DNA from: Candidatus Kuenenia stuttgartensis
GTDB taxonomy: Bacteria > Planctomycetota > Planctomycetia > Planctomycetales > Planctomycetaceae
Direction: 5' to 3'
Length of the DNA: 64,000 bases
NCBI GenBank assembly: GCA_945861465.1
Contig: CAMAVB010000004.1
Coordinates: forward strand, 11,687-75,686
The notes below the pieces were generated by a model. The model was not told the DNA's origin. It worked only from the letters and a program-made list of their open reading frames with translations, and did not search any database. Made by a program: the position numbers and the translations under genes. Positions 11,122 to 30,704 of this stretch are shown one piece after another (the stretch's first letter is position 1; each line of letters begins with the position of its first letter).

Positions 11122-11991
11122 ATGTCAACCCCCTCAGAAGACCAGTCTCGTCCGGCAACTGTGATCAAAGCCTGGGAAGACTTTGTGGAAGAACAGGTCT
11201 ACCCAGTCCCGGACGCCAAAGCAAAAAGCGATTACCGCAACTACGACGAACCGGCCCGGGACACCGTCCGCGAATTCTATCGCCAGAACCATCGGCATCA
11301 GACGCTCGCCTTTGTCTGCCAGAAACGCGATGAATTCCTGCGGCTCGACCGCCAGCAGATGAGCATCTTTGAAGCTCTGGATTTTCTGAATACACTGGTT
11401 GACGATTCGGACCCCGATATCGACCTCGATCAGCTCCAGCACCTGCTGCAGACCGCTGAATCCATCCGCAAAGACGGACAGGAAGACTGGTTTGTGCTGA
11501 CCGGGCTGATCCATGATCTCGGCAAAGTCCTGTGCCTGTACGGCGAACCACAATGGGCGGTCGTGGGTGACACCTTTCCGGTCGGTTGTCACTTCAGTAA
11601 CCGCATCGTGTTCAGCGAGTTCTTCGCCGAGAACCCAGATCACGCTGATCCGAAACTGAGCCAGCAGCTGGGCGTCTACGAAAGGAATTGTGGTCTGCGT
11701 CAGGTGCTGATGTCATGGGGCCACGATGAATACCTGTATCACGTGATGAAGGATCATCTTCCCGAACCCGCGCTGTACATGATCCGCTATCACTCGTTTT
11801 ACGCCTGGCACCGTGAATGCGAATACGACTGGCTCTGCGACGACCATGACCGTGCGATGCTGCCCTGGGTCCGCAAATTCAATCCGTACGACCTGTACTC
11901 AAAATCGCCGGAACCGCCTGACTGGAACAAACTCCGACCTTACTACGCCGATCTGCTGGGAAAATACCTGCCGGAAAAACTAGCGTTCTGA
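11122..11991 (+). CDS. myo-inositol oxygenase
   Basis: HD-domain MIOX motifs: HDLGKV, WGHDEYLYHVM, RYHSFYAWH, and the C-terminal KYLPEKLAF-type tail. Start at ATG 11122, because the upstream ORF extension runs through a REP. Confidence 0.9.
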   Translation: MSTPSEDQSRPATVIKAWEDFVEEQVYPVPDAKAKSDYRNYDEPARDTVREFYRQNHRHQTLAFVCQKRDEFLRLDRQQMSIFEALDFLNTLVDDSDPDIDLDQLQHLLQTAESIRKDGQEDWFVLTGLIHDLGKVLCLYGEPQWAVVGDTFPVGCHFSNRIVFSEFFAENPDHADPKLSQQLGVYERNCGLRQVLMSWGHDEYLYHVMKDHLPEPALYMIRYHSFYAWHRECEYDWLCDDHDRAMLPWVRKFNPYDLYSKSPEPPDWNKLRPYYADLLGKYLPEKLAF

Positions 11992-16300: not shown

Positions 16301-17359
16301 GCGATCGGTTGTGGTCTTCAGCGTTTCATTATGAGACTTCAGTGCCGTCTCAGCACTCTCAAACACCGTTCGAGCGGTTGCAACAGCCTTTGCTGCCCGC
16401 ACTTCATCATCCCGCAACCCACGTGCCGCATGACTGACGTTCTCGGTAAGCTTTAACTCCGCGCGCCGATCCGACGCAGCAGCACATAGTTGCACTACCG
16501 CTGTGAACTCCGCCCTTGCCTTCTCAACAGCAGTCAGCAACGTCGCATGTTGGCGAAACCATTCCGCCCGAACTTCGTGTTCCTTCAGGTTGACTTTCAA
16601 CTGTTGGACATTGCTCGTCGCCGACAACAACGCCTCATCCGCTTGCGCCCGAGCTTCATCCGACAAAGCCCGAACTCCCTGCAGTTGAGCTTCCAGAGTC
16701 TCAACCTCTTTCTTTTCGAGCGAATACCGAACAAAAACCGCTCGCGAAATTGCTTCAAAGTGTTCTGTGCCCGTTAACGCCTGCAAAATCTCTGCACGCT
16801 GCTTGTCTGCCGCCTTGAGAAACGTCGCAAAATCGTTCTGAGCCAACAACACGGCTCGCGTGAACTGCTCAAACGTCAGCCCGATCTTTTCTTCGATCGA
16901 CTCCTTGACCAGCTTCTTCTTGCCGCCTGCCTCCACGACTCCGTCGCCACCCGGTGCGATATGGCCGCGATACAACGCCATTTCGACGTCCTGCAGGTTT
17001 CCGTCCGGCTTATTGTGGCTGCGGCGGACACTCCAACGCGCCGTCCATCGCTGTTGATCAACACCAACAAACGCAACTTCGGCGAATCCGTACGCCGTGT
17101 TGAGACGCAGCAGAGTTCGCGTGTCGTATTGCCTTTCGCCCGTCTCCAGCTCCGCCGACTTCTTCGCAACCTGATTCAATCGCGGAGTCTTATCAAACAG
17201 CGCCAGGCATAAGGCATCCAGAAGCGTGCTCTTGCCAGCTCCGGTCGCCCCGCTGATCGAAAACAGCCCGGCGGTTCTGAGCGGGTCTTTTGTGAAATCG
17301 ACAGAATGCGTGCCCGCCAGCGAAGCAATATTGCATAAGGTGATGCGTTCAATTCTCAT
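13337..17359 (-). CDS. sbcC: SbcC-like SMC-type ATPase (1340 aa) with zinc hook and C-terminal extension
   Basis: Walker A GATGAGKST, long coiled coils, zinc hook CPVCG, signature LSGGESFLVSLALALGLA, Walker B LFIDEGFGSLD, H-loop ISHV. The start overlaps the sbcD stop (ATGA). Confidence 0.9.
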   Translation of the reverse strand: MRIERITLCNIASLAGTHSVDFTKDPLRTAGLFSISGATGAGKSTLLDALCLALFDKTPRLNQVAKKSAELETGERQYDTRTLLRLNTAYGFAEVAFVGVDQQRWTARWSVRRSHNKPDGNLQDVEMALYRGHIAPGGDGVVEAGGKKKLVKESIEEKIGLTFEQFTRAVLLAQNDFATFLKAADKQRAEILQALTGTEHFEAISRAVFVRYSLEKKEVETLEAQLQGVRALSDEARAQADEALLSATSNVQQLKVNLKEHEVRAEWFRQHATLLTAVEKARAEFTAVVQLCAAASDRRAELKLTENVSHAARGLRDDEVRAAKAVATARTVFESAETALKSHNETLKTTTDRVRTATAALKLVQEEELAAAPQLKRALELDAQLEPLQLRVKNSHAALTNATAAVNDATRKHDDAVRRKQAVLDEQQILEARRGKLTAYLPFVKEAATWHHRLDTAISTGSEATQLRDELKLLTETRQTEQHELETKRDELLQVQQQMESAVTELHVAETAERKFDGERLAQHRVELDASQRVLTTLQQELAERVKLRDQTETIEKEIAELESQQTQDTTTLNQHQEVDVPAAFRDAQVSRDQLERIVAAVDDDAKRLRLSLQPHQPCPVCGSESHPYSDHAPDFEAAAVAAAKDHYKELEIRRDKLNNEVQRLVAGSESRLDQITKQQQVRQKLLATIDSAVYSSVDHAEVATVLALPEVERQGVVTSKLDAVAMSLKQIAADEKAQRDAAKLTQKRRELVEKIVAQHQSRQHAVTVLERQTSITAAKHAVSESTLKKADEASHDALAALGGLFSALPHAKDELTAGASVFRDTFVASTKSCGEIQEQLVGLTANLLAANATIEPLEEAMFRASQARTACEIEHTATVGDHDKHVQQRQQLLDGRAVDVVQQEFAARLTTAGQTVDERTAARHAAEKLLAAAEEAHKSTKTNAEQTADGLQTAQAAMTAWLESFNASSSRKLTIADVDQMLARDAAWFETERTHFKSLDERVTSTSSACDVYQQQMQQHVDTRPVPDDEAVILVAEQRVKGELEAAKTVQEAALDEIKNDDRQRNQNAELTQRLAQRLTVAEPWLKLNELIGSKEGDKFRMIAQRRTLDVLLGYANHQLTQLSARYRLERLPESLNLIVIDCDMGEERRSVHSLSGGESFLVSLALALGLASLTSNRLRIESLFIDEGFGSLDLETLTMAMNALTHLEAQGRKVGVISHVTEMTDAIPVQIRVEKRRSGGASRIVIPGADPDCVSPTTDFEATTKALSSKSEDSDEVRALAATILNILKREQQLGNEKVSTTALRKEIGCKVKDFACAQVLLDGQIVMDGRSLRLADN

Positions 17360-18612
17360 CAGCCGCGAGCCTCCTGCAGCAGAATCTCGCGGAAGGCTTC
17401 CAGCACACGAGAGTCGGGTTCGCTGCGAAACTTTTCGCGATACGCATCCAGAAAAATATCTTCCGGATCGATCGTCTTCAGGTCTGTCTGGTTAAACGCT
17501 GCTGCGGCCTCGCCGGCTGCAGCATCACGCTCGGCACTTTCCACCTTGATCGACGCCAATCGCAACTGTTTGCCTTCCATTGCGTGTTCGATCCGACGTC
17601 TGCGCAGGGGATCCGGCCCCTCTTCCAGAATCCGTACTTCCACAAACGGATGCTGTTCCTGCGGAAGCGTGTCGTCCAGGCGCACTGATCCCAACAGGCC
17701 AAGGACATCATCGATCACCGCTGCAGCTGTGGCCGGAATTCGCAACATCATTGCGACGCGAGGAATCAGAATTTCCTCGACCGTCGCCAGTCGCGTTTTC
17801 TCGAAGGTCAGCTTCAGCAACTGATGCTGGTATCCGGCTTCCGCGAACGACAATGGAATCGGGCTGCCGCTGTAACGAATCCGTCCGCTGTCGAACTTCT
17901 GAGCACGATGCAGATGCCCCAGAGCCACATACGCGATCTGCGGGTCAAAAATGTCCGGACCAATTGCTTCCGCTCCGCCGATCACCAACCGACGTTCGGA
18001 GTCCCGCGATTCTTCCCCGCCATGCAGATGACAGTGCCCCAGCGCGATCAACGCCGCATCGGGGTTGAGTTCTGCTCGCAGCGTTACTGCTGCCGCCGTG
18101 GTGCGACGATAGAGTTCCCGAATACCGTCCAGATACGGATCGACCGCGTTCTTCACCAGCGGAACATCCGACGGACGCAGAAACGGGACGGCAATGGCGA
18201 TCGCCTGCACGCACCCTGCACGATCCTTCAGTGGCACAAGAAACTTTGCCAGATTGATGTTGCCCGCATCGTCCTGTCCGACCGTGCCGACAACCGAAAT
18301 ATCGAGCGAATCCAGCAATCCAGCCGGAGCTTCGAGACGCGCACCCGCATCGTGATTGCCGGCGGTCAACACGATTTGCAGCCCGGGCAGCGCTGCATGT
18401 GCGTTCGCCAGAAAGTTGTAGAAACGCTTCTGAGCCGCTGCCGACGGATTGATCGTATCGAACACATCCCCCGCGACAATCAAAGCGTCCGGTCGCTGAG
18501 ACTGTAGTTCTGCCAGCAGCCAGTCCAGAAAACAGCGATGCTCGTAGTCTCGATCAAACCCACAAAACGACTGCCCCAGATGCCAGTCTGCCGTGTGAAA
18601 AACTGTCAACAT
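17359..18612 (-). CDS. sbcD: SbcD/Mre11-type nuclease
   Basis: Calcineurin-like phosphoesterase motifs FHTADWHLG, VAGDVFD, GNHD, GHxH. Start at ATG 18612 (MLTVFHTADWHLG). Confidence 0.9.
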   Translation of the reverse strand: MLTVFHTADWHLGQSFCGFDRDYEHRCFLDWLLAELQSQRPDALIVAGDVFDTINPSAAAQKRFYNFLANAHAALPGLQIVLTAGNHDAGARLEAPAGLLDSLDISVVGTVGQDDAGNINLAKFLVPLKDRAGCVQAIAIAVPFLRPSDVPLVKNAVDPYLDGIRELYRRTTAAAVTLRAELNPDAALIALGHCHLHGGEESRDSERRLVIGGAEAIGPDIFDPQIAYVALGHLHRAQKFDSGRIRYSGSPIPLSFAEAGYQHQLLKLTFEKTRLATVEEILIPRVAMMLRIPATAAAVIDDVLGLLGSVRLDDTLPQEQHPFVEVRILEEGPDPLRRRRIEHAMEGKQLRLASIKVESAERDAAAGEAAAAFNQTDLKTIDPEDIFLDAYREKFRSEPDSRVLEAFREILLQEARG

Positions 18613-18661
18613 GGATGTGCCAAATCTGTGATTCCGTGCCAAAGGCAGGTAATGTGGTAGT

Positions 18662-18810
18662 CCAGGGCAACGCCCTGGGATTGCTCCAATGTACTTGATG
18701 GTTTCCGTATTGTAGGGTGGGACCAGCGGCTGATAAGCCGCGCCGGCCCACCGATATCACCAATGCTCATGGTGGGCCGGCGTTCGCGTTGCTCGCTGGT
18801 CCCACCCTAC
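18662..18810. repeat. short hairpin plus nested REPIN-like palindrome (gtagggtgggaccagcg family)
   Basis: ccagggcaacgccctgg, then gtagggtgggaccagcg...gccggcccacc...ggtgggccggc...cgctggtcccaccctac (outer and inner arms). Confidence 0.85.
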
Positions 18811-18831
18811 TTTGCCGCCCTTCCCACCAGG

Positions 18832-21534
18832 TTACATTGCTGGCCTCAACGCCAGTAACTTCGCCAACGCTTCAGCAAACTGCGTCAGCGATTCTTCCGA
18901 CGGAAGATTGATCTTCAGCGACTTCTGACCCTTGTCGTCCGTTTCTGCCGCTTCCGTCAGCTGCTGTCGAAGTTGAGTGACAGTTTCCGTGGACGGCGTT
19001 GTGCCGGAGTCCGGGAGCATCTGGGACAGGAAGCCAAATGCCGCCGTGAGCAACTGACCGCCAGCAGCGGCCATGTTTTCGCGGCGGGCGACGAGACGAG
19101 TCGCTTCCGCTTCCTTCTCACGCTTTTGACTTTCGTCCAGATGACCTTCCGGAAGCGCGCCAAGCAGGATTTCCAGCCTCGCTTTGAGCTGATCCATGCC
19201 ACTTTGTAAATTGACTTCACTGATCTCCGAATCGTAGTCCAGAGCCGCCATCGCCAGTTCTTTCTTCTGGCCAATCGTCGTCAGCAATTGTTCTTCAAGT
19301 GTGTCTTCGGTCACGAGAATGTACACGTTCACCGGTCGCTTCTGCCCCATCCGGTGTGCTCGGGCGATGCGCTGTTCAAGCACGGCGGGATTCCACGGCA
19401 GATCGACATTGATCACCGTATCAGCAGACTGCAGATTGAGTCCCGTGCTGCCGGCGTTGGTTGACAGGAAGACCTTGCACTTCGGATTGTTCTGGAATTC
19501 GTTGACGATCTGCTGGCGCTTATTCTGCGGAACTTTGCCTTCAAGTCGCACAAACGGAACCTTCCGCTTCTTCAGCAATGGCTCGATCAGATCCAGCATG
19601 CGCGTCCATTCCGAGAATACGACTGCTTTGTGATCGCCGTCCACAAAGAGCTGTTCGAAAAGCTCATCCAGCGTTTGTAATTTGGAAGAATATCCCGCAC
19701 CCTGTTTATCGACAAGATATGTGCTGTCCGCCGCCATGCGGCACATCATCATAGCCTGTCGCAGCTTGAGCAGATCCATTTCAGAGATGTACGCTTTGCG
19801 CGTAATGGACGCAATGATCCGCGCGTGCGCCAAGTGCAACGCGCGCTGTTCTTCTGTCGGAGGGATGTGAATGATCTGAGTGTTGCGCGGCGGCAGATCT
19901 TTCATCACCATGTCGCGCGTGCGGCGGAGCAGAATGGGTTTGAGCTGTGTTCGCAGTTCATCCAGATTTTTGTAACCCAGAACGAAACCCTTGTCGTCGG
20001 TGATGCGATAACGATTAAAGAATCGAAAGCCCGGTCCCAGATGCCGACCGTCAACAAACTGCACGACCGAGTACAGTTCGTCCAGTCGGTTTTCCAGCGG
20101 CGTGCCGGACAGTACAAGTGCAAACTGCGACTTCAGACTCTTGACGATGCGCGTCGTTTGAGCCTCCCAGTTTTTGATCCGCTGACCTTCGTCCAGAATA
20201 ATGAGATCCCACTTCGCGGCTTCGATCGGCATAATGTCACGGAGGACTTGTTCGTAGTTGCAGATCGTGAAGAACGCAGGTTCGTTGTACTGCGCGGCTC
20301 GATCTTCGGCTTTCCCCATGACGAGTTGAGATGTTCGAGCGGAGAACTTCTGAATTTCATTTTTCCACTGTGACTTGAGCGAGGTCGGGCAGATCACGAG
20401 AACTCGAGTGATTCCCGCTTCGCGGGCCAGCAATTCCGCAACACCAACGCCTTGAATGGTCTTGCCGAGTCCCATGTCGTCAGCAAGGATTGCCCGCCCT
20501 GCCCCGGCGGCAAACGCAATACCGTCCATTTGGTAAGGCAGCAGTTCAGTTTTCAGCAACGTGGTACGCAGAGCATGCTTCTGTGGATCTTTGCGGATTT
20601 CATCGACCAGATTTTTGATGCGTTGCCGATAAAGTTGTTGCTGAATAAACTCTTCGGCATCCGGATAGACGACGACGGATTCGCCGAGTCCTTCCAGTTT
20701 GTCGATGCGGCGGACGAGGTCGTTGACATCGGAAATATCCACGTTCTGAATCGGGCCAATGATCTTTGCTGTTGATTCACTCGGTCGATCCGGTGTGCCC
20801 AGTCGCAGTGCCAGTTCAATGCCGTATTTTAAGTAGACGCTCGTGTCCTTTTGTTTCGGTTTTTTCTTAAATGCTCCCGGATCAAACCGCCGTCGGATTT
20901 TGAGGAGCGTGTGCAGAATATGCTTGCAGGTTCCGAGCGTGTTACTTCGAAAGTCAGGACATGTGCAGAACGAATCACCGGGTTCTGTACCACGCAGAGC
21001 GACGCGATATGTCTTGCCACTCAGCCTGCTGGTGACAACATAATCCTGCCACGGAGTCTTGCTGACTTTGTCAGTCGCTTCGACGATGAACTTTTCGTCC
21101 TTCGCCCGCTGCGCTCGCTCGCTGAACGCCAGTTCGATGAGTTCCTGTTCACCGAGCGGCTCGACAGCTTCACGTTCGACCGGCGGCTTCGCGAGACCGA
21201 GTGACGATTTGGAATCCATAATCACTGACAATGCCGTACCCAGATGTTCGCAGGGAACATTGCATTTGTCGCAGTTCAGGAGCATCCGTTTGACTTTGTC
21301 CTGCCGCATCGTGATCGTGACGATAACGTCTTCGCCTGGCAGTGAAAGTCGAAACAGATCGCCATCCAGGTAGATCTGTTCGTCCCATTTTGCAATTCCA
21401 ATTTTTCCGCCTGCATACAGCAGTTTCTTGCCCTCAATCGGACCGCCGAGCAGTTCACATGCCTGTGTAAACGTGAGTCGTGAAAGGCGATCTTTCAGCG
21501 TAAGATCTTTAGACTTCTTAACCTGCGTCGCCAT
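18832..21534 (-). CDS. SNF2-family helicase with N-terminal SWIM zinc fingers
   Basis: SWIM motif CTCPDFRSNTLGTCKHILH (plus a degenerate CDKCNVPCEH). SNF2 motifs LADDMGLGKT and DEGQRIKN. Helicase-C motifs GSTGLNLQSADTVINVDLPWNPAVLEQRIARAHRMGQ. Confidence 0.9.
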   Translation of the reverse strand: MATQVKKSKDLTLKDRLSRLTFTQACELLGGPIEGKKLLYAGGKIGIAKWDEQIYLDGDLFRLSLPGEDVIVTITMRQDKVKRMLLNCDKCNVPCEHLGTALSVIMDSKSSLGLAKPPVEREAVEPLGEQELIELAFSERAQRAKDEKFIVEATDKVSKTPWQDYVVTSRLSGKTYRVALRGTEPGDSFCTCPDFRSNTLGTCKHILHTLLKIRRRFDPGAFKKKPKQKDTSVYLKYGIELALRLGTPDRPSESTAKIIGPIQNVDISDVNDLVRRIDKLEGLGESVVVYPDAEEFIQQQLYRQRIKNLVDEIRKDPQKHALRTTLLKTELLPYQMDGIAFAAGAGRAILADDMGLGKTIQGVGVAELLAREAGITRVLVICPTSLKSQWKNEIQKFSARTSQLVMGKAEDRAAQYNEPAFFTICNYEQVLRDIMPIEAAKWDLIILDEGQRIKNWEAQTTRIVKSLKSQFALVLSGTPLENRLDELYSVVQFVDGRHLGPGFRFFNRYRITDDKGFVLGYKNLDELRTQLKPILLRRTRDMVMKDLPPRNTQIIHIPPTEEQRALHLAHARIIASITRKAYISEMDLLKLRQAMMMCRMAADSTYLVDKQGAGYSSKLQTLDELFEQLFVDGDHKAVVFSEWTRMLDLIEPLLKKRKVPFVRLEGKVPQNKRQQIVNEFQNNPKCKVFLSTNAGSTGLNLQSADTVINVDLPWNPAVLEQRIARAHRMGQKRPVNVYILVTEDTLEEQLLTTIGQKKELAMAALDYDSEISEVNLQSGMDQLKARLEILLGALPEGHLDESQKREKEAEATRLVARRENMAAAGGQLLTAAFGFLSQMLPDSGTTPSTETVTQLRQQLTEAAETDDKGQKSLKINLPSEESLTQFAEALAKLLALRPAM

Positions 21535-22338: not shown

Positions 22339-22510
22339 GTTTCGAAGTCTAACGTGCTGCGCTCGTTTGGTATCCTTGTCGTCTCAGTTGCAACGTGGCG
22401 TCTCTGTGTCCCACGACTTTCTGCGAAGACGCTGTCGGATGAAGATCGCATTCGAACACGATTTTCGTATAATCGTCGGTGGAGCAAGTTGTCCGGAAGG
22501 AAGAACCAGA

Positions 22511-22717
22511 ATGAAGAAAGTTGAGCTGATTTCAATTGATGGACATCAGGCGTTGACATTGCCTGATGAATTTCGTTTCACAGAGACGACCGTTACTATT
22601 CGGAAGGTAGGCGACGCTTTGATTCTGGAGAGGGTCAAGGCCAATACGTGGCCGACTGATTTTTTCGACGCTATTCACATTGACGACACAGGGTTCATTC
22701 GTCCCTCGCAATTATGA
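22511..22717 (+). CDS. AbrB/MazE/SpoVT-type antitoxin (VapB-like), orphan
   Basis: 68 aa: MKKVELISIDGHQALTLPDEFRFTETTVTIRKVGDALILERV..., a swapped-hairpin antitoxin pattern. ATG 22511 is preceded by GGAAGGA. A possible TATAAT lies at 22468-22473. Confidence 0.65.
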   Translation: MKKVELISIDGHQALTLPDEFRFTETTVTIRKVGDALILERVKANTWPTDFFDAIHIDDTGFIRPSQL

Positions 22718-22848
22718 CTATCGCAGACACATTTGAGGCTCAATCATGCCTACGTGTCTGGTGCTGCGTTTACAGTCATGAATGCAGCTCGCAGTTCGAA
22801 ATGCGTCGTGTTTTCCATAAACTGTCTCTGGTGGTATTGCCACACTGA
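22714..22848 (+). pseudogene. possible truncated toxin ORF coupled to the AbrB-type antitoxin
   Basis: 44-codon ORF whose ATG overlaps the antitoxin stop (ATGA). It terminates 4 nt before the REP at 22853. No PIN or other motif is recognisable, so the call rests on position only. Confidence 0.2.
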
Positions 22849-22852
22849 TCCC

Positions 22853-22924
22853 GGGGAATCTCAGTCGGCGGAGCGACTGAGCTACGTAGGCGACGTCGCT
22901 CCGCCGACTCGCATTCCTGTCAAC
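22853..22924. repeat. REP hairpin family 'gggaatctcagtcggcggagcgac'
   Basis: ggggaatctcAGTCGGCGGAGCGACtgagctacgtaggcgacGTCGCTCCGCCGACTcgcattcctgtcaac. Further copies at 27075, 27425 and 28982. Confidence 0.85.
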
Positions 22925-23091
22925 GAGCTTGCCAAACAACGCCCCGTAGATCATGGAAACACATCCGCCACGTAACTTCTCTGTGCGAGTATGGTGCTTT
23001 TCGTAGATGCTGAATTGCGATTCGAGGTGCTGCACACTGCACCGACTTGGGGATCGTCATGTTTCAAGCCCATCGCTGACGACATTTTTCT

Positions 23092-24171
23092 TCAAGAGGG
23101 GAAAAATCCGTCCCGGACTTTGTAGACCGCCTCCATGTCCAGCTTCTCGCCGTCGAAGATGATCTGCCGGCTCTTCTTGTCCTTCCGGTTCTTGAGGTAA
23201 TGCGTCACGTTCATCCAGCGGATCGTCTCATCACCGCGCATCTCGTCCGTCTGGCGGATGACAAGAAACACGTCCACCGGCTGGCTGATCCAGTATTCGA
23301 GGTGGCGGTCGTTCTTCAAATCGAACACCTCGCGGCCATCGCCTTTGCGGGTGCGGAGGTAGGAATTTCCGCTCTTGAGTTGGATGTAGATCCGCTTCCC
23401 GCTGGCTCGACCGTCGTTGTCCTTGAACTCCACTTCGCCGTCGATGCCGTAGTCGAACATTGTCACCGGGCGGAAGATCTGATTCGCCTCGCCAGCGATG
23501 GCCATCATGTGTCCGATCAGGATTTGCTCCAGCGCCTGCGTGTCGAGTTCGCGCGTGGCCGTCTCTTCCATCGCCAGGATCTTGTGGGCCACGAGATCGC
23601 TTTTGAGCCGTTGCTCAATGAAATCGACGAGTTCGACCTCGGTTCGGCATTTCTGGCAAACGATCGTCGATCGCTTTTCTGCGAGCAGTTCGCGGATGAG
23701 TTCTAGGTCTTTGAAGGGACGACCGCATCCTCTGCACACATAACGCCGGTCGCGCGTCACCTCGCAGGCATACTTGGCAAGGTGGCGATGGGCATACTCG
23801 ATAAAGATCGCCTTCAGTTCGTCGCGGACCTCTCGATCAAAGTACAGGCTGATCGTCGCCTTCCCTTGGCCTTGCTGGTTGTCGATCTTCAGGCCGAGAG
23901 TGCGGCCGGAGAAGGCGAACTCCGCCGCGTTGCGCCACAGTTCGCGGTGCTCGAACTCGTTGCTGTACCACAGCCGCACGACCAGCGTGGTCCACACCGT
24001 CTGCCACTCGCCACTGAACGAGTAGGAGACAAAAATGTCCGGCTCATGCGGGATGTCCTTTTCCCGGCGGTATTGCGAGGGAAAGACCAGGTTCCGTCCC
24101 TGCGGCGTCTCCTCGGCGATGCACAGCGAGTATCGTTGCCGTTGGTGACGCCTCCACTTCAAAAAAGTCAC
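23092..24171 (-). CDS. zinc-ribbon + DUF4365-type (PD-(D/E)xK-like) protein, third gene of the TIR operon
   Basis: CRGCGRPF...CQKCRTEV CxxC pairs. The C-terminal DYGIDGEVEF...RIYIQLKSG fits the DUF4365 restriction-endonuclease-like signature. The N-terminal ~120 aa (LVFPSQY...) loosely resemble the tail of COR-type domains. Only 18 nt separate it from the upstream gene. Confidence 0.7.
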   Translation of the reverse strand: MTFLKWRRHQRQRYSLCIAEETPQGRNLVFPSQYRREKDIPHEPDIFVSYSFSGEWQTVWTTLVVRLWYSNEFEHRELWRNAAEFAFSGRTLGLKIDNQQGQGKATISLYFDREVRDELKAIFIEYAHRHLAKYACEVTRDRRYVCRGCGRPFKDLELIRELLAEKRSTIVCQKCRTEVELVDFIEQRLKSDLVAHKILAMEETATRELDTQALEQILIGHMMAIAGEANQIFRPVTMFDYGIDGEVEFKDNDGRASGKRIYIQLKSGNSYLRTRKGDGREVFDLKNDRHLEYWISQPVDVFLVIRQTDEMRGDETIRWMNVTHYLKNRKDKKSRQIIFDGEKLDMEAVYKVRDGFFPS

Positions 24172-24189
24172 GATTTTTGAGCCGCCAAA

Positions 24190-26166
24190 TCACATCTCCG
24201 CCATAACGCTCTGGAAGTCCTTGTTTGATACGAGATCACACAATTCATGCACCGTGATGACTCTAGGATTTTTCGGTGGCGTCCCGAGCCACAGTTCTGC
24301 TGAGTTAGGGTCAAGGTATTCGGGAGTGGCTACGATGAGAAAGGTTACGCATCCAGAATATTCTCGGCCCGCAGCTCGCATCTGATCAAGCAGGGCATCG
24401 CCTCGACGCTTGGCTTTTCGTATTTGCTTGACCAATTCCATTTGTCGGTTCTGAATTGTATGGAAGTGGCCCACGTGATAATCGGACGTTCGCTGCCAGC
24501 TCTTCATATCCAAGTTTACAAGAAATCCGTGTATCTCGAAGCAGAAATCTACGTCACCACAGTTTGTGTCGCCTTGTAACACATCCTTGTTAGCCGGAAA
24601 CGGAAGATTACTCGGCGTAAGTGAAAGCATCTCGACCAAGGTTGCTCGAACTTGGCTCTCAAAGAGATCACCGCGAGTATTTCCGACTCCTCCGTCTCCT
24701 GCAGTTACTGCGCTCATCAACCCATCCCAAAAATCAGGCCACGCGGTCAAATCATGGACGCATGTGTGTTCGTCTTGCTCGATGAAGAGTATCGGGTTCG
24801 AGAGGCCAACAGGGTTGGGAGTTCCGCTGAACGCCGAAAAGAACCGATGAGCGAGTTCATCGGGCCCTTGTGCACCAAGATGATCAAGTTCAGATGACAC
24901 TGCCATCCTGAATGCTTTCCTTGGGTTTCGCAGTGAACCCCGCTGCAGAACGGCGACCATATGCACCACCGCGCCTCGAAGTAGCGTGGCGTCCGCCGGA
25001 GAACTCAGGGTCAACGCCGGGGCGTCATTCCATTTACCTTCACGCAACCAACCGCATTGTGTATGCCTCTCGATGACAAGCCCCAAGGCGGCCAAGCACA
25101 GTTCGAGCTCTGCTGCGGAGAGATCGAACTTCGCCTTCAATTGCGGATCGAAGTATTGGCCGAGCAAGCGAATCCTCCCCTGCCAGCTCGTATTCGCGAT
25201 TGGATACCAGTTTGGTGACGGGAAAGCGGCGTCTAATTTAGGAACATGTACCGGAAGCGGCATCGAATCCGGCAGGGCGGGTATCACTGACCAAATCCGG
25301 TGTATCTGGTCTGGCACCGGCTCTTTTGGACCGGCAAGAAGGCCGGGCCGCGAGTAGTCCGAAAATTGCATTTGACGGCGAGAATCGTACGCTGCGGCAG
25401 CTCGCTCGATGGACTCGTTTGCTTCGAGGCCAACACTGGGTACGAGTAGGATCCCACTGCCGTCCCAATCATCGAGCGCATCCAACTGTGATTGGCTCAA
25501 TTGCTCAGGAAGCGATCCGATTTTGCGGCCCTTTCCGGCCCAGCGATACCAGTTTTGGGACCAGACAAGCAAATGGCAGGCACCGATGAATCTGCCAAGG
25601 ATCTTCGGTGCGTCGCGTTCAAATGCACTCCATTGCGAGGGGGGCAAGGCAATCGCCGTCATGCCATCTTCCCGAACTCGTTCCCATTGAACGCCATTGG
25701 AATTAACGGCCATTGCACGCATGGTCCGAATTACTTGTGCGATCGTGTTATTGTCATTAGGCAGCAGCAATTGGCAGGCTAAAGCAATTACAGAGTGGGG
25801 CAACGAACTCGTCACTTGAATAGAGAATCGGCAATCCCATTTGCTCAATGCCTTTTCAGCTTCGCTCATTGCTAATCGGACCAGCCGTTCGAGGCGTATC
25901 GTGTCGAACTTGTCGTCGCGTGTCGCATCATCTTTCAGCCAGTCATCCAGGATACGGCTCCATTCGGTGAGAGCGGACTTTCGCAAGTCAAGCAGGCGAG
26001 GGCGGACAATGCGTTCGAGTTGTGTAGCCATCCAGTCCTCTGGAGGTCTTGAACTCGATTCGTCCCCCAACTCCGCTGAGTTCGGCTTGCCGCAACACTT
26101 CTTAAACTTCGATCCACTGCCGCAAGGACATGGAGAATTGCGTCCCGGTTGTTTGCTAGTCGTCAC
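24190..26166 (-). CDS. SEC-C-motif protein with unassigned central region and NERD-like PD-(D/E)xK C-terminus
   Basis: GTG 26166 is preceded by GAGG and gives MTTSKQPGRNSPCPCGSGSKFKKCCGKP (SEC-C metal-binding motif). C-terminus: GDLFESQVRATLVEM ... GDVDFCFEIHGFLVNLDMKSW (D.D...(D/E)xK.W as in NERD nucleases). The longer ORF start at 26418 overlaps the TIR gene and was rejected. Confidence 0.7.
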   Translation of the reverse strand: MTTSKQPGRNSPCPCGSGSKFKKCCGKPNSAELGDESSSRPPEDWMATQLERIVRPRLLDLRKSALTEWSRILDDWLKDDATRDDKFDTIRLERLVRLAMSEAEKALSKWDCRFSIQVTSSLPHSVIALACQLLLPNDNNTIAQVIRTMRAMAVNSNGVQWERVREDGMTAIALPPSQWSAFERDAPKILGRFIGACHLLVWSQNWYRWAGKGRKIGSLPEQLSQSQLDALDDWDGSGILLVPSVGLEANESIERAAAAYDSRRQMQFSDYSRPGLLAGPKEPVPDQIHRIWSVIPALPDSMPLPVHVPKLDAAFPSPNWYPIANTSWQGRIRLLGQYFDPQLKAKFDLSAAELELCLAALGLVIERHTQCGWLREGKWNDAPALTLSSPADATLLRGAVVHMVAVLQRGSLRNPRKAFRMAVSSELDHLGAQGPDELAHRFFSAFSGTPNPVGLSNPILFIEQDEHTCVHDLTAWPDFWDGLMSAVTAGDGGVGNTRGDLFESQVRATLVEMLSLTPSNLPFPANKDVLQGDTNCGDVDFCFEIHGFLVNLDMKSWQRTSDYHVGHFHTIQNRQMELVKQIRKAKRRGDALLDQMRAAGREYSGCVTFLIVATPEYLDPNSAELWLGTPPKNPRVITVHELCDLVSNKDFQSVMAEM

Positions 26167-26194
26167 ATTAACCTCTGGTGTAATCAAAAAATCG

Positions 26195-26632
26195 TTATGG
26201 AAGGGCCCCCTCCGCTTCCTCGCGGAAATCAACGTACTTGTAACGCTGCAGCGTGTCCGGCAGTTTGCAGTCGGCCAGCAGGAGCGGGATGAAGCGGCGG
26301 CCGGCATTGGCGGGGTCGCGATGGATGGCGGTGCTCCGCTCCAGGGCCACCCAGTCCGAGGCGAGCGCCGCGGGCGAGAGGCACAGCAGCAGCACCCGCG
26401 ACTGCTCCAGACCCTCATCCACTTTCAGCGAGATGATGTCCCCCGGCTGGATGACCCACTCATCCAACCACACCGGCAGCCCCGCCCCCTTCAGCCGCTC
26501 CGCCAGCTTGCGGACTTTTGGCTTGTCGTCTTTGTTGTGGCTGAGGAACACATCGAATGCAAAACGAGCGTCTTTCGTTTGGTCATTTTCCCCAGCGTCA
26601 GCCGCCGATTTCTTCGATGCCTGTTTTGCCAT
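26195..26632 (-). CDS. stand-alone TIR-domain protein
   Basis: FDVFLSHNKDDKPKVRKLAERLKGAGLPVWLDEWVIQPGD...VLLLCLSPAALASDWVALE is the TIR_2 pattern, including the W..E position of the catalytic Glu. Start at ATG 26632 (MAKQASKKS). Confidence 0.85.
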   Translation of the reverse strand: MAKQASKKSAADAGENDQTKDARFAFDVFLSHNKDDKPKVRKLAERLKGAGLPVWLDEWVIQPGDIISLKVDEGLEQSRVLLLCLSPAALASDWVALERSTAIHRDPANAGRRFIPLLLADCKLPDTLQRYKYVDFREEAEGALP

Positions 26633-26790
26633 GGCAAGCCACGATCCCCGGAAGCAATGTGGATGCGGCAATCTTCAATCTTGATCGCCTTGAGATTTCA
26701 CAGCGTACCGCTCTTAGGGTCTCCCGGAAAGTCACTATCCGATACGCGAAAAAATTGAAGCGGCGAATGCAGCTCAGGTCCCGTCTCGAT

Positions 26791-27496
26791 TCAGCGCCCG
26801 TGTGCAGACGTGCAACATGAACTCACTGCGACAACTTTGTGATCTTTGCGTTCTTTTGCGGCTAAAATCCTATGGCGGCCTGACATGTCTTGAAATCATG
26901 AATGGGCGCAAGAGATCGCAAAGAGCGCAAAAGGAAACACAGTTTTTCACCACGGAGGACACGGAGGAATCGCGGGGAGACAGATGGCAGGAAAATGGAG
27001 GGCAGGAATATCTGGCACGGAGCCGCGACATGGTGTCCATAAGCTGTCTCTGATGGCATCGCCACGCTGATGCCGGGGAATCTCAGTCGGCGGAGTGATT
27101 GAACTACGTAGGCGATGTCGCTCCGCCGACTCGCATTCCTGTCAGCGCCCGTGTGCAGACTTGCAACATGAACTCACTGCGACAACTTTGCGATCCTTGC
27201 GTTCTTTTGCGGCTAAACCCTGTGGCGGCGTGACATGTCTGGAAATCATGAATGGCCGCAAGAGATCGCAAAGAGCGCAAAAGGAAACACAGTTTTTTAC
27301 CACGGAGGACACGGAGGAATCGCGGGGAGACAGATGGCAGGAAAATGGAGGGCAGGAATATCTGGAGCGGAGTCGAGACATGGTGTCGTTAAGCAGCCCT
27401 GGATGGCATCGCAATGAGGGTACCCGGGAATCTCAGTCGGCGGAGCGACTGAACTACGTAGGCGATGTCGCTCCGCCGACTCGCATTCCTGTCAAC
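26791..27496. repeat. two tandem copies of a ~351-bp composite repeat
   Basis: tcagcgcccgtgtgcagac... recurs at 26791 and 27142. Each copy holds a long hairpin (ttgcgatcYttgcgttcttttgcggc / gccgcaagagatcgcaaagagcgcaaaagg), a ggaggacacggaggaatcgcgggg module, and a gggaatctcagtcggcgg hairpin. Confidence 0.85.
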
Positions 27497-27746
27497 GCAC
27501 ATGGCCAACAACGCCGCGTGGCTGGCCGGCTGTTGAAATCCATGCTGTCCAGCACTGTACCGGAGGGCTCACGCCGCTCCGCTCGCCAGGGTGGTGTTGT
27601 GATGCCTGCGAACGGGATCAGGAAACTGAAGATGATCGACCGCAAGCGTATCGCAACAGTACAGAAGGTAACGCAGGTTTTACTACGGAGAACTTGGCGT
27701 GGGCTTGGCCCGCAACCCAGAATGGAAGAAATGAAAGAAATTCTTA

Positions 27747-28015: not shown

Positions 28016-28312
28016 ATGATGGGAAAACAAATGCCGACAATGAACATTTCAGTGACAAATGAATTGATCGAAATGGTTAACGGCAAGGTCAATTCGGGGT
28101 TGTATGGAGATGCCAGCGAAGTCATCAACGCGGCATTGCGTCTGATGGATGAGTATGATCAGTCCCAGCACTTTACAATCAGACAGATCGAACAGAAACT
28201 TGGGCGCGGATTGCAGCAGGCGGAAAAGGGTGAGTTCACCGAGCAATCAGTCGGGGACATTGTTGCAGAAGCCAAAGCGTTCAAACTTGCTAACCGTTCG
28301 TCCGCCACATGA
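28016..28312 (+). CDS. ParD-family antitoxin
   Basis: MNISVTNELIEMVNGKVNSGLYGDASEVINAALRLMDE is the canonical ParD N-terminus. The stop overlaps the toxin ATG (ATGA). The true start may be an internal Met (MPTMNISV). Confidence 0.85.
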   Translation: MMGKQMPTMNISVTNELIEMVNGKVNSGLYGDASEVINAALRLMDEYDQSQHFTIRQIEQKLGRGLQQAEKGEFTEQSVGDIVAEAKAFKLANRSSAT

Positions 28313-28644
28313 CCAATTATCGCTTAACGCTTGAAGCCAAAGCAGATTTAATTGAAATCTGGAACTACTCGGATGACCTGTGGGGGTCTGCGCAAGCCGA
28401 CCGATACGTCGAAGGTTTGGAAGTCTGTTTCCGCTCGATGGGAGAACTACCGACGCACGGCTGCGCAGAGTTGCTTCCTGATGCAACTTCCGATTTGTGC
28501 TTTTATCGCTATCAATCCCACTACGTATTCTTTCGAATGGTGTCCGGCACGGTAGAAATTCTGACCATTATTCGCGCCGCACGGCAAGGAATTGTTGAGC
28601 GTTTCTTGTCAGAACATCGATCAAGGCATCCTGATTCTTTGTGA
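28309..28644 (+). CDS. ParE/RelE-family toxin
   Basis: MTNYRLTLEAKADLIEIWNYSDDLWGSAQADRYVEGL...YRYQSHYVFFRMVSGTVEILTIIRAARQ shows the ParE hallmarks (A..DL..I..Y, Y.vfyr......i.il.ii...). Confidence 0.85.
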   Translation: MTNYRLTLEAKADLIEIWNYSDDLWGSAQADRYVEGLEVCFRSMGELPTHGCAELLPDATSDLCFYRYQSHYVFFRMVSGTVEILTIIRAARQGIVERFLSEHRSRHPDSL

Positions 28645-28739
28645 GTCCACTGCAGAAAACATGCTACGACAAATCACAACTTCACGACGTGAATGCCCGG
28701 TGAGCAGTATTGGTACTTTCAATAAAAATTTCACGGGGA

Positions 28740-29017
28740 CAGTTTTGCGATCTTTGCGTTCTTTTGCGGCTAAAACCTGTGGCTCCGTGAGGTGTTCTTG
28801 AACTCATGAATGGCCGCAAGAGAGCGCAAAGAACGCAAAGGGAAACGCAGTTTTTCAGCACGGAGGAAACGGTAGATTCGCAGGAAGACAGATGACAGGA
28901 AAATGGAGGGCAGAAACATTTGGAGCGGAGTTGCGTCATGGAGTTCTTAAACGACCGTTGATGGTTCCGCCATGCGGGTACCGGGGAATCTCAGTCGACG
29001 GAGCGACTGAGCTACGC
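28740..29017. repeat. third, diverged and 3'-truncated copy of the 351-bp composite repeat
   Basis: Same module order as 26791-27496 (ttgcgatctttgcgttcttttgcggc...ggccgcaagagagcgcaaagaacgcaaaggg...ggggaatctcagtcgacggagcgactgagctacg). It ends at the stop codon of the endonuclease-like gene. Confidence 0.8.
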
Positions 29018-29898
29018 TACTTCGCATCAAATAGCCGCATCGGATTGATTTTGAACTGCAGCATGTTTGCGGTCACACGACCATTGTCGCCGCCTTTTCG
29101 CTGCATGGTGATGCCGCCGATTTTCAGGTTGCCGGCTTTCGTGATTTCGACCGGGCCGTCGCTGAAGCACATGATGGCATCTGCGGATGACGTGATCACC
29201 CATTTGGGTTTGTCAGTCGCCTTCAATGTCACCATCATCCAGCCGGCGGCATGAATACCGTCACCGGCGAGCAGGTCGGATACAATCTCATCCTTGTTCG
29301 CCGTGAAGAATTCAACAACGGTCTGCTGAACATCCGGGTCCATCTCATCCAGATACATTCGCCTGCGGTCGCGGCTGGACTCATGTGGCGGCGTCTCACC
29401 GACATAGAGTTTCAATGCCTCAACGACATCGGGCGGCATTTTCCACAATGTTGCATAGGTCGCGAGCCAGCGCTTGTCGATCTGATTAAAGCCGTTCGGA
29501 CTGCTGACGAGCTTGATGGAAATTCTCTCGACGTTTTCGCCGGACTTCGTTCTGACTGTGACTTCGACGTCGGCTTTTTCTCTGTGTGGCTTTGAGGCCG
29601 TGACGTTGTCGATATCCGCAATCTCGTAATTCATCGCGGCCAGCCATGCTTGAGCATCCGCGTCGGACTGCCAGTTGTTGAACTTGTTGCGGATTTCGTC
29701 CTCGTTTCGGAAGCCGTTTTTCGCGGTCTTCGAACCAAGCTCGACTTTTGATGGGTCTGCATCCTGAGCGGGGAGGCTGCAACGAAGCCCGCGTCGGAGA
29801 CACGGGGAACATTCCTGTGCATGCGCAATCAGGCAGGAAGACTGCAATGCCAACAGAAAGATGAGTATTGGTTTCGTGGTCATACTCGTAACTCGCAC
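29017..29898 (-). CDS. HinP1I/MspI-like type II restriction endonuclease homologue with N-terminal signal-like extension
   Basis: VELGSKTAKNGFRNEDEI..., KADVEV...ISIKLVSSPNGFNQIDKRWL (D...S-x-K catalytic-type motif), and TMQRKGGDNGRVTANMLQFKINP. As I remember them, these match blocks of R.HinP1I and more distantly R.MspI. The N-terminus MTTKPILIFLLALQSSCLIAHAQE looks like a signal peptide. Confidence 0.65.
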   Translation of the reverse strand: MRVTSMTTKPILIFLLALQSSCLIAHAQECSPCLRRGLRCSLPAQDADPSKVELGSKTAKNGFRNEDEIRNKFNNWQSDADAQAWLAAMNYEIADIDNVTASKPHREKADVEVTVRTKSGENVERISIKLVSSPNGFNQIDKRWLATYATLWKMPPDVVEALKLYVGETPPHESSRDRRRMYLDEMDPDVQQTVVEFFTANKDEIVSDLLAGDGIHAAGWMMVTLKATDKPKWVITSSADAIMCFSDGPVEITKAGNLKIGGITMQRKGGDNGRVTANMLQFKINPMRLFDAK

Positions 29899-29930: not shown

Positions 29931-30536
29931 CTACGCTCGTGCTTTTTCGAAGAGTTCTTCAACGTCCATCCGGAACCCCTTCAGGACTCTTGATACGGCA
30001 TGTTCAGTGCGGCCTGATCGGATCACGTCGCGATACTCACCGTCACGCAGGTGGAGTACTTGAATCGAATCATTGCGAGGATCAATCATCCAGTATTCGG
30101 CAATGCCGGCGGCAGCATAATCGCGACGTTTGTCCACCAGGTCACGATCCGGATCGTCAGGACTGATGACTTCGACAACCAGATCTGCCGTTTCCCAAAA
30201 CTGTTCCTGTCGCCGTTTTGAATTGGCCTTGGAGACAAACAAAACGTCAGGTTCTCGAAAGTGCCGCTCGCTGATTCGAACGCGAGTCGGGGCTGACATG
30301 ACGATTCCAAGACTGGATTGTTCTGCAAATCCATGCAACTGCAGAAACACAAGTCGTGCGATGAACTGATGCAGCAGTGATGGCACTGGCAGAACCTCCA
30401 CATTTCCGTGTACCAATTCCACCATGCGATTGCCGGGGAGCGAAAAATAGTCACCATCCCGCCACTCACCCTGACGCGGAAATAATTCCAGAATCGCCAC
30501 GCTGGCGTCATCGTTGGGCGCGTTGACAATTGACAT
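29931..30536 (-). CDS. Uma2-family (DUF820) endonuclease
   Basis: Y..LP....ELV.G...V.P.P...H, EPDVLFV and DLVVEVISP...RDLV.KRRDYAAAGI.EYW.ID motifs. Start at ATG 30536. Confidence 0.85.
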   Translation of the reverse strand: MSIVNAPNDDASVAILELFPRQGEWRDGDYFSLPGNRMVELVHGNVEVLPVPSLLHQFIARLVFLQLHGFAEQSSLGIVMSAPTRVRISERHFREPDVLFVSKANSKRRQEQFWETADLVVEVISPDDPDRDLVDKRRDYAAAGIAEYWMIDPRNDSIQVLHLRDGEYRDVIRSGRTEHAVSRVLKGFRMDVEELFEKARA

Positions 30537-30704
30537 TGCAAGGACACTTCCACGAAGATGAGTGGCGAATTGACGCCGCATTGAAAAAAGGTCTGACCTC
30601 GGAGTCGAATCGGCTTATCGTACTGCGACCTGACACTGTCGTGAAGTACAAATCGAACAATGTTTGGCGCGGACCTGTGTCCTGGCTGAGTTTCTGGAGC
30701 CCCT

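Follow-up and report, generated by a model that had tools for sequence, protein, structure and literature searches.

A candidate defence nuclease gene between the remnants of a TIR-WD40-Roc-DUF4365 gene in Candidatus Kuenenia stuttgartensis

In a stretch of 64,000 nucleotides (nt) from Candidatus Kuenenia stuttgartensis (assembly GCA_945861465.1, contig CAMAVB010000004.1, forward-strand positions 11,687 to 75,686; the window in the following), three minus-strand open reading frames (ORFs) between positions 23092 and 26632 encode a TIR protein, a SEC-C protein referred to here as MID, and a protein of 359 amino acids (aa) with a zinc (Zn) ribbon and a DUF4365 domain. A preliminary description of this DNA had read the three as a candidate three-gene defence system. 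From the comparison with full-length relatives and with homologous loci, it is rather to be expected that MID, a candidate defence nuclease, acts autonomously and has taken the place of the core of an immune-type gene. This host gene has the architecture TIR-WD40-Roc-DUF4365 and has spread horizontally, and the TIR and DUF4365 ORFs are its stubs. We regard this reading as probable, and the evidence for it and against it is laid out below, with all coordinates collected in Table 1.

The flanking reading frames

The ORF map and Pfam matches bear out the three close ORFs with their TIR, SEC-C and Zn ribbon-DUF4365 domains, separated by gaps of 28 nt (TIR-MID) and 18 nt (MID-DUF4365 ORF). When the 359-aa ORF was used as query, more than 300 proteins with 60-97% identity over 96% of its length were found, nearly all of them longer and some with Roc/Ras GTPase domains upstream. 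The homology to these longer proteins always begins at residue 14 (...SLCIAEE...), and the first 13 codons of the ORF, including its GTG start, are not homologous to the longer gene. On long contigs, matches to TIR_2, WD40 and Ras lie directly upstream of the DUF4365 region and on the same strand. A scan of the GTDB genomes led to 72 loci, all from metagenome-assembled genomes (MAGs) and none from a cultured isolate; the gene is an intact single ORF of 1,120-1,330 aa in 26 of these loci and colinear, if interrupted, in 12 more. This canonical protein of about 1,150 aa combines TIR, WD40, Roc GTPase, an unassigned region, Zn ribbon and DUF4365 in this order, as illustrated by the Pfam matches of the intact copy at L018 (loci carry L numbers): TIR_2 12-132, WD40 170-480, Roc/Ras 486-642 (Roc 1.5e-16) and DUF4365 1022-1136. 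That the gene might never be intact, an idea prompted by the large number of short TIR and DUF4365 database proteins, is ruled out by the 26 intact ORFs.

Aligned with the intact canonical proteins, the window TIR ORF corresponds to residues 7-128 (80-82% aa identity) and the 359-aa ORF to residues 805-1150 (77-80%), and both arms share 90-94% nt identity with planctomycete MAG loci (91-94% for the TIR stub against the TIR arms of L017 and L073). Canonical residues 129-804 had no match anywhere in the 64-kb window; the part missing from the window copy, residues ~129-804, comprises the WD40 repeats, the Roc GTPase and the larger part of the unassigned region. The 5' junction sits in the linker past the TIR domain, where the TAA stop of the stub also falls, and the ~2.07 kb between the two junctions are essentially MID with minimal flanks, in place of ~2.0 kb of host gene. 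These alignments identify the TIR and DUF4365 ORFs as the 5' and 3' remnants of one disrupted gene, and by the same comparison the window holds remnants of a member of the canonical family and not a member. The host gene is almost certainly disabled here and survives as two stubs. Two features of the trio follow from this: no NTPase is encoded because the ancestral Roc GTPase was deleted, and the TIR and DUF4365 genes co-occur with MID because MID is embedded inside the split gene. The lack of a P-loop or NTPase family in all three window proteins had already been noticed and was confirmed with Pfam, PADLOC and NCBIfam. An assembly chimera at the conserved arms was rejected as unlikely, since the trio has the same layout on L004 (8.6 kb) and L088, two contigs assembled from further samples of that metagenome project.

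Both stubs keep recognisable domains. The TIR ORF matches Pfam TIR_2 (PF13676, E=1.2e-29), and the closest solved structure is that of AbTir, an NAD+ hydrolase (E=7e-12). The glutamate proposed earlier within SDWVALE is E98, which aligns with the glutamate of DWTNYE in AbTir; we take the latter to be the catalytic residue of that enzyme. In the 359-aa ORF, the two expected CxxC pairs (C146/C149 and C172/C175) and the DUF4365 domain (PF14280, E=6.8e-22, aa 225-351) were recovered, and a match to the DUF4365 protein in PDB entry 9qbq was obtained (E=9e-5). In addition, aa 14-206 of this stub are ~31% identical to segments of plasmid-borne cyanobacterial proteins (Calothrix, Nostoc) annotated as WD-repeat, NACHT-domain or metallophosphoesterase proteins; this region may be a common unnamed module of NLR-like (nucleotide-binding leucine-rich-repeat-like) proteins.

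The intact canonical protein is 70-90% identical in aa sequence across many lineages, namely Planctomycetota, Verrucomicrobiota, Acidobacteriota, Chlorobiaceae, Gamma- and Betaproteobacteria, Bacteroidota, Geobacteraceae and one Methanotrichaceae MAG. Such a spread would imply very recent and very broad horizontal transfer, or else systematic mis-binning. Several MAGs carry two copies of the host gene, for example one intact and one degraded. On the long-read MAG contigs L010/L020 and L015 the gene is split into 2-3 ORFs and most neighbouring genes are intact; these splits may reflect either genuine pseudogenisation or frameshift errors at homopolymers, and a split amidohydrolase gene that is also present on L015 suggests sequencing errors. 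PADLOC holds no full-length model for the canonical family, and in the literature we found no description of the TIR-WD40-Roc-DUF4365 architecture or of MID.

The MID protein and its relatives

Mechanical ORF calling extends MID to 742 aa by a run-on upstream into the TIR gene. As the homologs P0002-P0004 align from residue 1 of the 658-aa form, SEC-C motif included, the longer start was rejected and the GTG start was taken. The protein consists of an N-terminal SEC-C zinc motif, ~430 aa without a family match and a C-terminal NERD/Can2-like PD-(D/E)xK domain. The SEC-C motif, noticed previously at the start of MID, was confirmed by Pfam; it also matches the YchJ and SecA C-terminal peptides in the PDB and occurs, N-terminally, in 13 of 50 MID relatives.

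For the C-terminus, a NERD/PD-(D/E)xK domain had been proposed, which stands with moderate support through the relatives and a domain model and does not stand as a direct match, the window protein scoring below Pfam NERD. In an alignment of 50 sequences with identities down to 14-20%, D472, D540 and K555 do not vary, F502-E503 reach at least 90% conservation, and with D553-M-K555 the signature E...D...(D/E)xK is complete. Pfam NERD is matched by 14 of the 50 relatives, in two cases above the gathering score, at aa ~430-570 of proteins of ~600 aa, Card1_endonuc by three and the PADLOC CARF_PDDEXK nuclease domain by seven, and the SEC-C ... NERD architecture is kept in distant relatives. For an AlphaFold model of the last 227 aa (pLDDT 69, pTM 0.64), the best Foldseek matches in the PDB include PD-(D/E)xK nucleases: Can2 ranks first (probability 0.98, E=3.6e-3), ahead of Upx, Cdn1, Card1, R.BspD6I, XisH, McrC and Shedu. 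The full-length model (pTM 0.50) led to no useful match in the PDB (best E=0.28), and sequence and profile searches against the PDB returned only SEC-C peptides and a marginal Can2 match. MID is therefore assigned, as a prediction with moderate support, to the NERD/PD-(D/E)xK nuclease superfamily.

Close homologs of MID are rare (8 among 5.8 billion clustered proteins), and a profile search gave 233 representative matches at E<=1e-3 among 1.84 billion representatives. Scanning metagenomes with the MID alignment added five further loci, all short. The complete trio recurs at L008/L009. MID is also found without the arms, in six or more contexts that are unrelated to each other, and at L005 its neighbour is a TIR stub of 51 aa. 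Because it occurs alone in these other contexts, MID appears to be independent of the arms and would need neither the TIR nor the DUF4365 gene. That the three genes form a co-evolved three-component system is not upheld by these results: two of its components are the ends of one gene, and the third stands alone elsewhere. The preliminary description had itself named juxtaposed gene fragments as the finding that would speak against it, and this is largely what two of the three genes turned out to be.

Recurrent replacement of the host-gene centre

In eight MAG loci both arms are kept, homology to the central part is missing, and all ORFs between the arms lie on the strand of the arms. Every locus with a replaced centre belongs to Planctomycetota or Verrucomicrobiota. 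Alignment of these loci demonstrates that the same replacement, with other cargo and other break points, recurs in both phyla, and by their profile matches several cargos are complete known defence systems (Table 1). MID has the traits of an embedded cargo, being co-oriented with its host and occupying a position where homologous loci carry known defence systems; the host is split here, unlike in published cases. Loci that retain the C-terminal arm only carry further cargo upstream, again co-oriented. Among the inter-arm ORFs, those at L063:5056-5511, L076:172-993 and L062:334-1506 have no family match and are further defence candidates. One of the eight is a Verrucomicrobiaceae locus (L032:5276-9056), where a TIR arm is followed by a SIR2_2 gene and then by a complete WD40-less TIR-Roc-...-DUF4365 gene of 882 aa, a natural short variant of the host gene beside the stub of another copy.

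Break points vary from locus to locus, at canonical residues 51, 85, 103 and 126-140 on the 5' side and at residues 681, 753, 789, 800, 805, 821, 899, 963, 976 and 990-1004 on the 3' side. This variation points to several independent replacement events. Site-specific insertion was considered and rejected, since the junctions share no common motif or repeat and the break points differ.

Comparison of strains gives an additional signal. Between the window and L004/L088, TIR and MID together differ by 1 nt in ~2.4 kb, and MID shows 1-2 substitutions in 2 kb between strains. Over the compared region (window 22376-26861), the 1,080 nt of the C-terminal arm contain 6 and 27 differences (0.6-2.5%), and the outer flanks are ~1-2% apart. 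Differences in the arm are patchy, and at several of them L088 agrees with the L008 allele or with the family consensus. From this uneven divergence, the cargo seems to have swept recently and the arm to have recombined; the arm patches may also stem from cross-strain read mixing during metagenome assembly.

Table 1. Positions and properties of the window features and of the compared loci (canonical residues refer to the intact TIR-WD40-Roc-DUF4365 protein).
Feature	Position or locus	Strand	Description and basis
TIR stub	26195..26632	minus	145 aa, ATG start
Conserved Glu E98 of TIR stub	26339-26341	minus	aligns with Glu in AbTir DWTNYE
5' junction	26194..26201	minus	canonical homology stops at ~residue 128; tblastn/blastn end points, comparison with L017, L073, L018
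MID, middle cargo gene	24190..26166	minus	658 aa, GTG start, GAGG Shine-Dalgarno motif 5 nt upstream
SEC-C metal-binding motif, MID aa 9-27, CPCGSGSKFKKCC	26086..26142	minus	Pfam PF02810, E=1.5e-7
NERD/Can2-like PD-(D/E)xK domain, MID aa ~440-650	24217..24849	minus	conservation, NERD matches in relatives, Foldseek
Putative catalytic residues of MID	E503 24658-24660; D540 24547-24549; D553 24508-24510; K555 24502-24504	minus	
3' junction	24131..24132	minus	canonical homology restarts at residue ~805
C-terminal stub (Zn ribbon-DUF4365 ORF)	23092..24171	minus	359 aa, GTG start, Shine-Dalgarno motif not obvious
Unassigned domain of C-terminal stub, aa 14-~140		minus	
Zn ribbon of C-terminal stub, C146/C149/C172/C175	23635-23736	minus	
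DUF4365 nuclease domain of C-terminal stub, aa 225-351	23119-23499	minus	
Dispersed repeat of ~139 nt, family D2	22809..22947 (downstream of locus); 27031-27169, 27381-27519 (upstream)		79-81% identity
Intact canonical genes	L018:5589-9068; L021:3787-7284		
Cargo between arms	L017		GmrSD-type type IV enzyme; PADLOC Orf5 8e-177, Pfam GmrSD_N/C
Cargo between arms	L084		PsyrT + PsyrA; 6e-277, 2e-130
Cargo between arms	L074		PDC-M02 A+B; 1e-158
Cargo between arms	L032		SIR2_2 gene + WD40-less TIR-Roc-DUF4365 gene
Cargo between arms	L073		in-frame TIR-NACHT fusion
Cargo between arms	L063		HD-domain protein
Cargo between arms	L075		TIR-LRR
Cargo between arms	L085		DUF4062 protein
Cargo, C-terminal arm only, Chthoniobacteraceae	L078:4762-8417		HepT + divergent TIR + 673-aa ParA/MinD-like ATPase
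Cargo, C-terminal arm only, Chthoniobacteraceae	L072:3-2425		radical-SAM protein
Cargo, C-terminal arm only, Chthoniobacteraceae	L087:2104-6400		802-aa double-HATPase protein
Cargo, C-terminal arm only, Chthoniobacteraceae	L079:3-1220		RhuM
Cargo, C-terminal arm only	L016		GmrSD_C remnant + insertion sequence (IS) element
MID locus	L004, L088		window's own locus on other contigs
MID locus	L008/L009		orthologous locus; upstream flank 89% nt, TIR 77% aa, MID 54% aa identity, DUF4365 arm from residue ~1004
MID locus	L005		51-aa TIR fragment, then MID apparently interrupted (gene callers: 396-aa + 183-aa products)
MID locus	L001-3		MID alone, cyanobacterial-type context
MID locus	L006		MID alone
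MID locus	L007/L093		MID alone, divergent ATPase_2 gene nearby
MID locus	L089, L090/91		MID alone
MID locus	L092		MID alone; neighbouring ORF PIN-domain-toxin-like as judged by eye

Interpretation and alternatives

In the window, ~2 kb of the host-gene centre have given way to MID, an unrelated gene in the orientation of its host. If MID is a self-contained defence protein, its large N-terminal region, with the SEC-C motif as an optional part, would sense or regulate. Once activated, the C-terminal NERD/Can2-type nuclease would cut nucleic acid, either as direct restriction or in abortive infection. The two conserved arms would serve mainly as homology handles by which cargo moves between genomes carrying the host gene, and would themselves be patched by recombination with other copies.

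Several observations weigh against this interpretation. The fold evidence for MID is modest (pLDDT 69, Foldseek E ~4e-3, TM 0.34-0.42), and the window protein itself does not reach the Pfam NERD model. PADLOC recognises only the SEC-C motif in MID and only the nuclease domain in its relatives. MID was not found in GTDB genomes, viral contigs or phage records, and among plasmids there was one marginal match only. With no further PADLOC match and none beyond this one in the GTDB, phage, plasmid and viral collections, the evidence that MID sits among defence genes is thin. The antiphage role of both MID and the canonical gene is that of a candidate proposed from sequence, and the function of the arms as handles for homologous recombination is one that we infer. 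The remaining points concern the stubs: both are intact ORFs and hence maybe not inert, the C-terminal arm shows a dN/dS (ratio of non-synonymous to synonymous substitution rates) of 0.12-0.19 between stub-bearing loci, in the range between intact genes (0.10-0.21), and on the 3' side the window, L016, L017 and L063 break within ~30 codons of each other, possibly around a retained functional module.

These last points also underlie two views in which the stubs are active. The first, a tentative and rather doubtful extension, takes the arms as a dedicated docking platform for defence cassettes in bacteria of the Planctomycetota-Verrucomicrobiota-Chlamydiota (PVC) group: cargo would be swapped by recombination through the arms, and purifying selection would maintain these as free TIR and DUF4365 modules that act beside the cargo as effectors or guards. 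If true, MID would be a new nuclease defence made up of a single gene, and the trio would represent one state of a new kind of locus, modular and intragenic, for the exchange of defence genes.

In the second, a modular three-part system that updates the reading of the preliminary description, the free TIR and the Zn ribbon-DUF4365 nuclease would be kept as common effectors and the middle gene would be a swappable sensor or partner. We consider this unlikely. It would be in line with three intact ORFs on one strand at short distances without a convincing internal terminator, the recurrence of the trio at L008/L009, the conserved glutamate retained in the TIR stub, the low dN/dS, and the grouping of 3' break points at residues 789-821 and again at 990-1004, just before the DUF4365 domain; moreover, stand-alone DUF4365 proteins of ~170 aa are components of the PADLOC candidate PDC-M02. 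On the other hand, the other middle genes (GmrSD, PsyrTA) are complete systems that work alone, MID lacks either partner in its other contexts and has only a 51-aa TIR fragment beside it at L005, the break points are widely spread, and arms decay visibly by frameshifts or internal deletions in L071, L074, L076, L079, L080 and L085. The low dN/dS is not decisive for function, as equal values could arise if the sequences diverged before they were truncated, or if intact paralogs converted them (two copies are present in several MAGs). Loss of the WD40 repeats and the GTPase, the missing Shine-Dalgarno sequence of the DUF4365 stub, the decay of other arms and the self-sufficient cargo systems all argue against a function of the stubs, as far as can be judged from the sequences.

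MID could also be a selfish, homing-endonuclease-like or mobile gene that invaded the TIR-WD40-Roc-DUF4365 gene and has no part in defence. Its PD-(D/E)xK nuclease domain, the presence of 3 of ~10 distinct MID loci inside this one host gene, and the near identity of TIR and MID between strains whose flanks are 1-2% apart would agree with this. Nevertheless, we regard a selfish origin as improbable: the host centre is replaced rather than interrupted, with break points that differ each time, and the many unrelated cargos imply that targeting belongs to the slot and not to MID. In addition, neither terminal repeats nor an integrase or transposase accompany MID, and its near absence from the phage, plasmid and viral collections speaks against it as well. 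That all three ORFs, MID included, are functionless decaying debris, as could be read from two of them being gene fragments and from the apparently interrupted MID of L005, is very improbable, given the full length of MID, its catalytic residues invariant in relatives down to 14-20% identity, the few substitutions between strains and the SEC-C ... NERD layout kept in distant relatives.

Neighbouring genes and repeats

Defence-type surroundings had been proposed for the trio and were indeed found: a ParD/ParE pair (window 28016-28644), a restriction endonuclease of the R.HinP1I family (29017-29898; 5e-54), a Uma2 endonuclease (29931-30581), an SNF2-family helicase and repeats. No adjoining long ORF fit for a methyltransferase was seen next to the R.HinP1I-family gene, the flanking ORFs not having been searched against family libraries. 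The SNF2-family helicase (900 aa, 18832-21534) has two Cys/His-rich stretches in its N-terminal ~200 aa, and directly upstream of it lie two large co-oriented ORFs of 1,340 aa (13337-17359) and 427 aa (17359-18642); helicase and large ORFs (13337-21534) could form another defence-type module. Dispersed direct-repeat families of 76, 139 and 289 nt (63-96% identical; 22809-22947, 26791-27519 and 28699-29061) bracket the trio on both sides and recur near ParDE, and the upstream repeat region at L008 is 89% identical. They may be similar to miniature inverted-repeat transposable elements (MITE-like) or generic planctomycete intergenic repeats.

Comparison with known systems

Tight, co-oriented TIR and nuclease genes as found here mimic a new system, and operon calls made at the domain level in defence islands need a check against full-length relatives. 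The recurrent replacement inside a single immune gene, exposed in this way, concerns a large undescribed host gene of immune type. If the arms act as recombination handles, they would provide a compact hotspot, easy to search, from which defence genes of poorly cultured phyla could be mined. The SEC-C/NERD-type family of ~650-aa proteins, with ~230 representative clusters and absent from PADLOC, is a candidate single-gene defence, and the slot-occupancy logic behind its nomination has already given validated systems.

That the trio matches no named system was supported, as PADLOC, NCBIfam and Pfam gave domain-level matches only. For Thoeris, the window TIR lacks a ThsA partner, neither neighbour carrying SIR2, Macro or SLOG, and it matches ThsB models weakly (PADLOC 1.6e-8, partial; Pfam ThsB_TIR 0.11). 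The NTPase switch of TIR-STAND, Avs and NLR-like systems is absent from all three window proteins. With PDC-M02, the DUF4365 stub shares a match to M02A at profile positions 8-68 of 170 only (1.6e-5) and the TIR scores 0.044 against M02B; the window has no PDC-M02B partner, whereas L074 holds the full pair. SPARDA and short prokaryotic Argonaute (pAgo) systems have the DUF4365 domain in common with the stub (PADLOC Aga_REase 2.6e-11; PDB 9qbq), but the match to Aga_REase-PNTD1-PNTD2 is confined to its REase part (profile 21-128 of 429), neither APAZ nor Argonaute is present at the locus, and the window domain ends a truncated Roc-GTPase protein.

The C-terminal domain of MID resembles Can2 and Card1, ancillary effectors of type III CRISPR systems, in fold class and in the E...D...(D/E)xK signature. 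The likeness is limited to the nuclease domain: MID has a SEC-C motif and neither a CARF domain nor a CRISPR context, and its N-terminal ~430 aa match nothing.

The ancestral host gene is similar to the Roc ('AP-GTPase') NLR-like conflict proteins (Kaur et al., 2020; PMC7159879) in combining Roc/Ras, a WD40 array and TIR and DUF4365 effectors with horizontal spread. The window copy differs in lacking the GTPase and the WD40 repeats, and the exact TIR-WD40-Roc-DUF4365 architecture was not found in that work. Roco proteins have Roc directly followed by COR. Roc is detected in the canonical relatives and is absent from the window. In the canonical proteins, including the WD40-less L032 protein, Pfam detects no COR; the unassigned ~370 aa between Roc and Zn ribbon lie at the position that COR has in Roco proteins.

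The closest parallel is the embedding of defence genes inside Hma, BREX, DISARM and Type I restriction-modification (RM) loci, with 96.7% co-orientation, where the cargo lies between the genes of multi-gene systems and the hosts remain intact (bioRxiv 10.1101/2024.01.29.577857). As in those cases, unrelated defence genes are nested in the orientation of the host (all ~12 loci here are co-oriented), GmrSD-like genes are frequent cargo, and slot occupancy is used to nominate candidates. In contrast, the host here is a single ORF of which the central ~2 kb (WD40, GTPase) were deleted and replaced, and the TIR-WD40-Roc-DUF4365 gene is not among the hosts named there. Defence embedding as such was known already; new here are its occurrence inside a single gene, the candidate MID family and the undescribed host gene.

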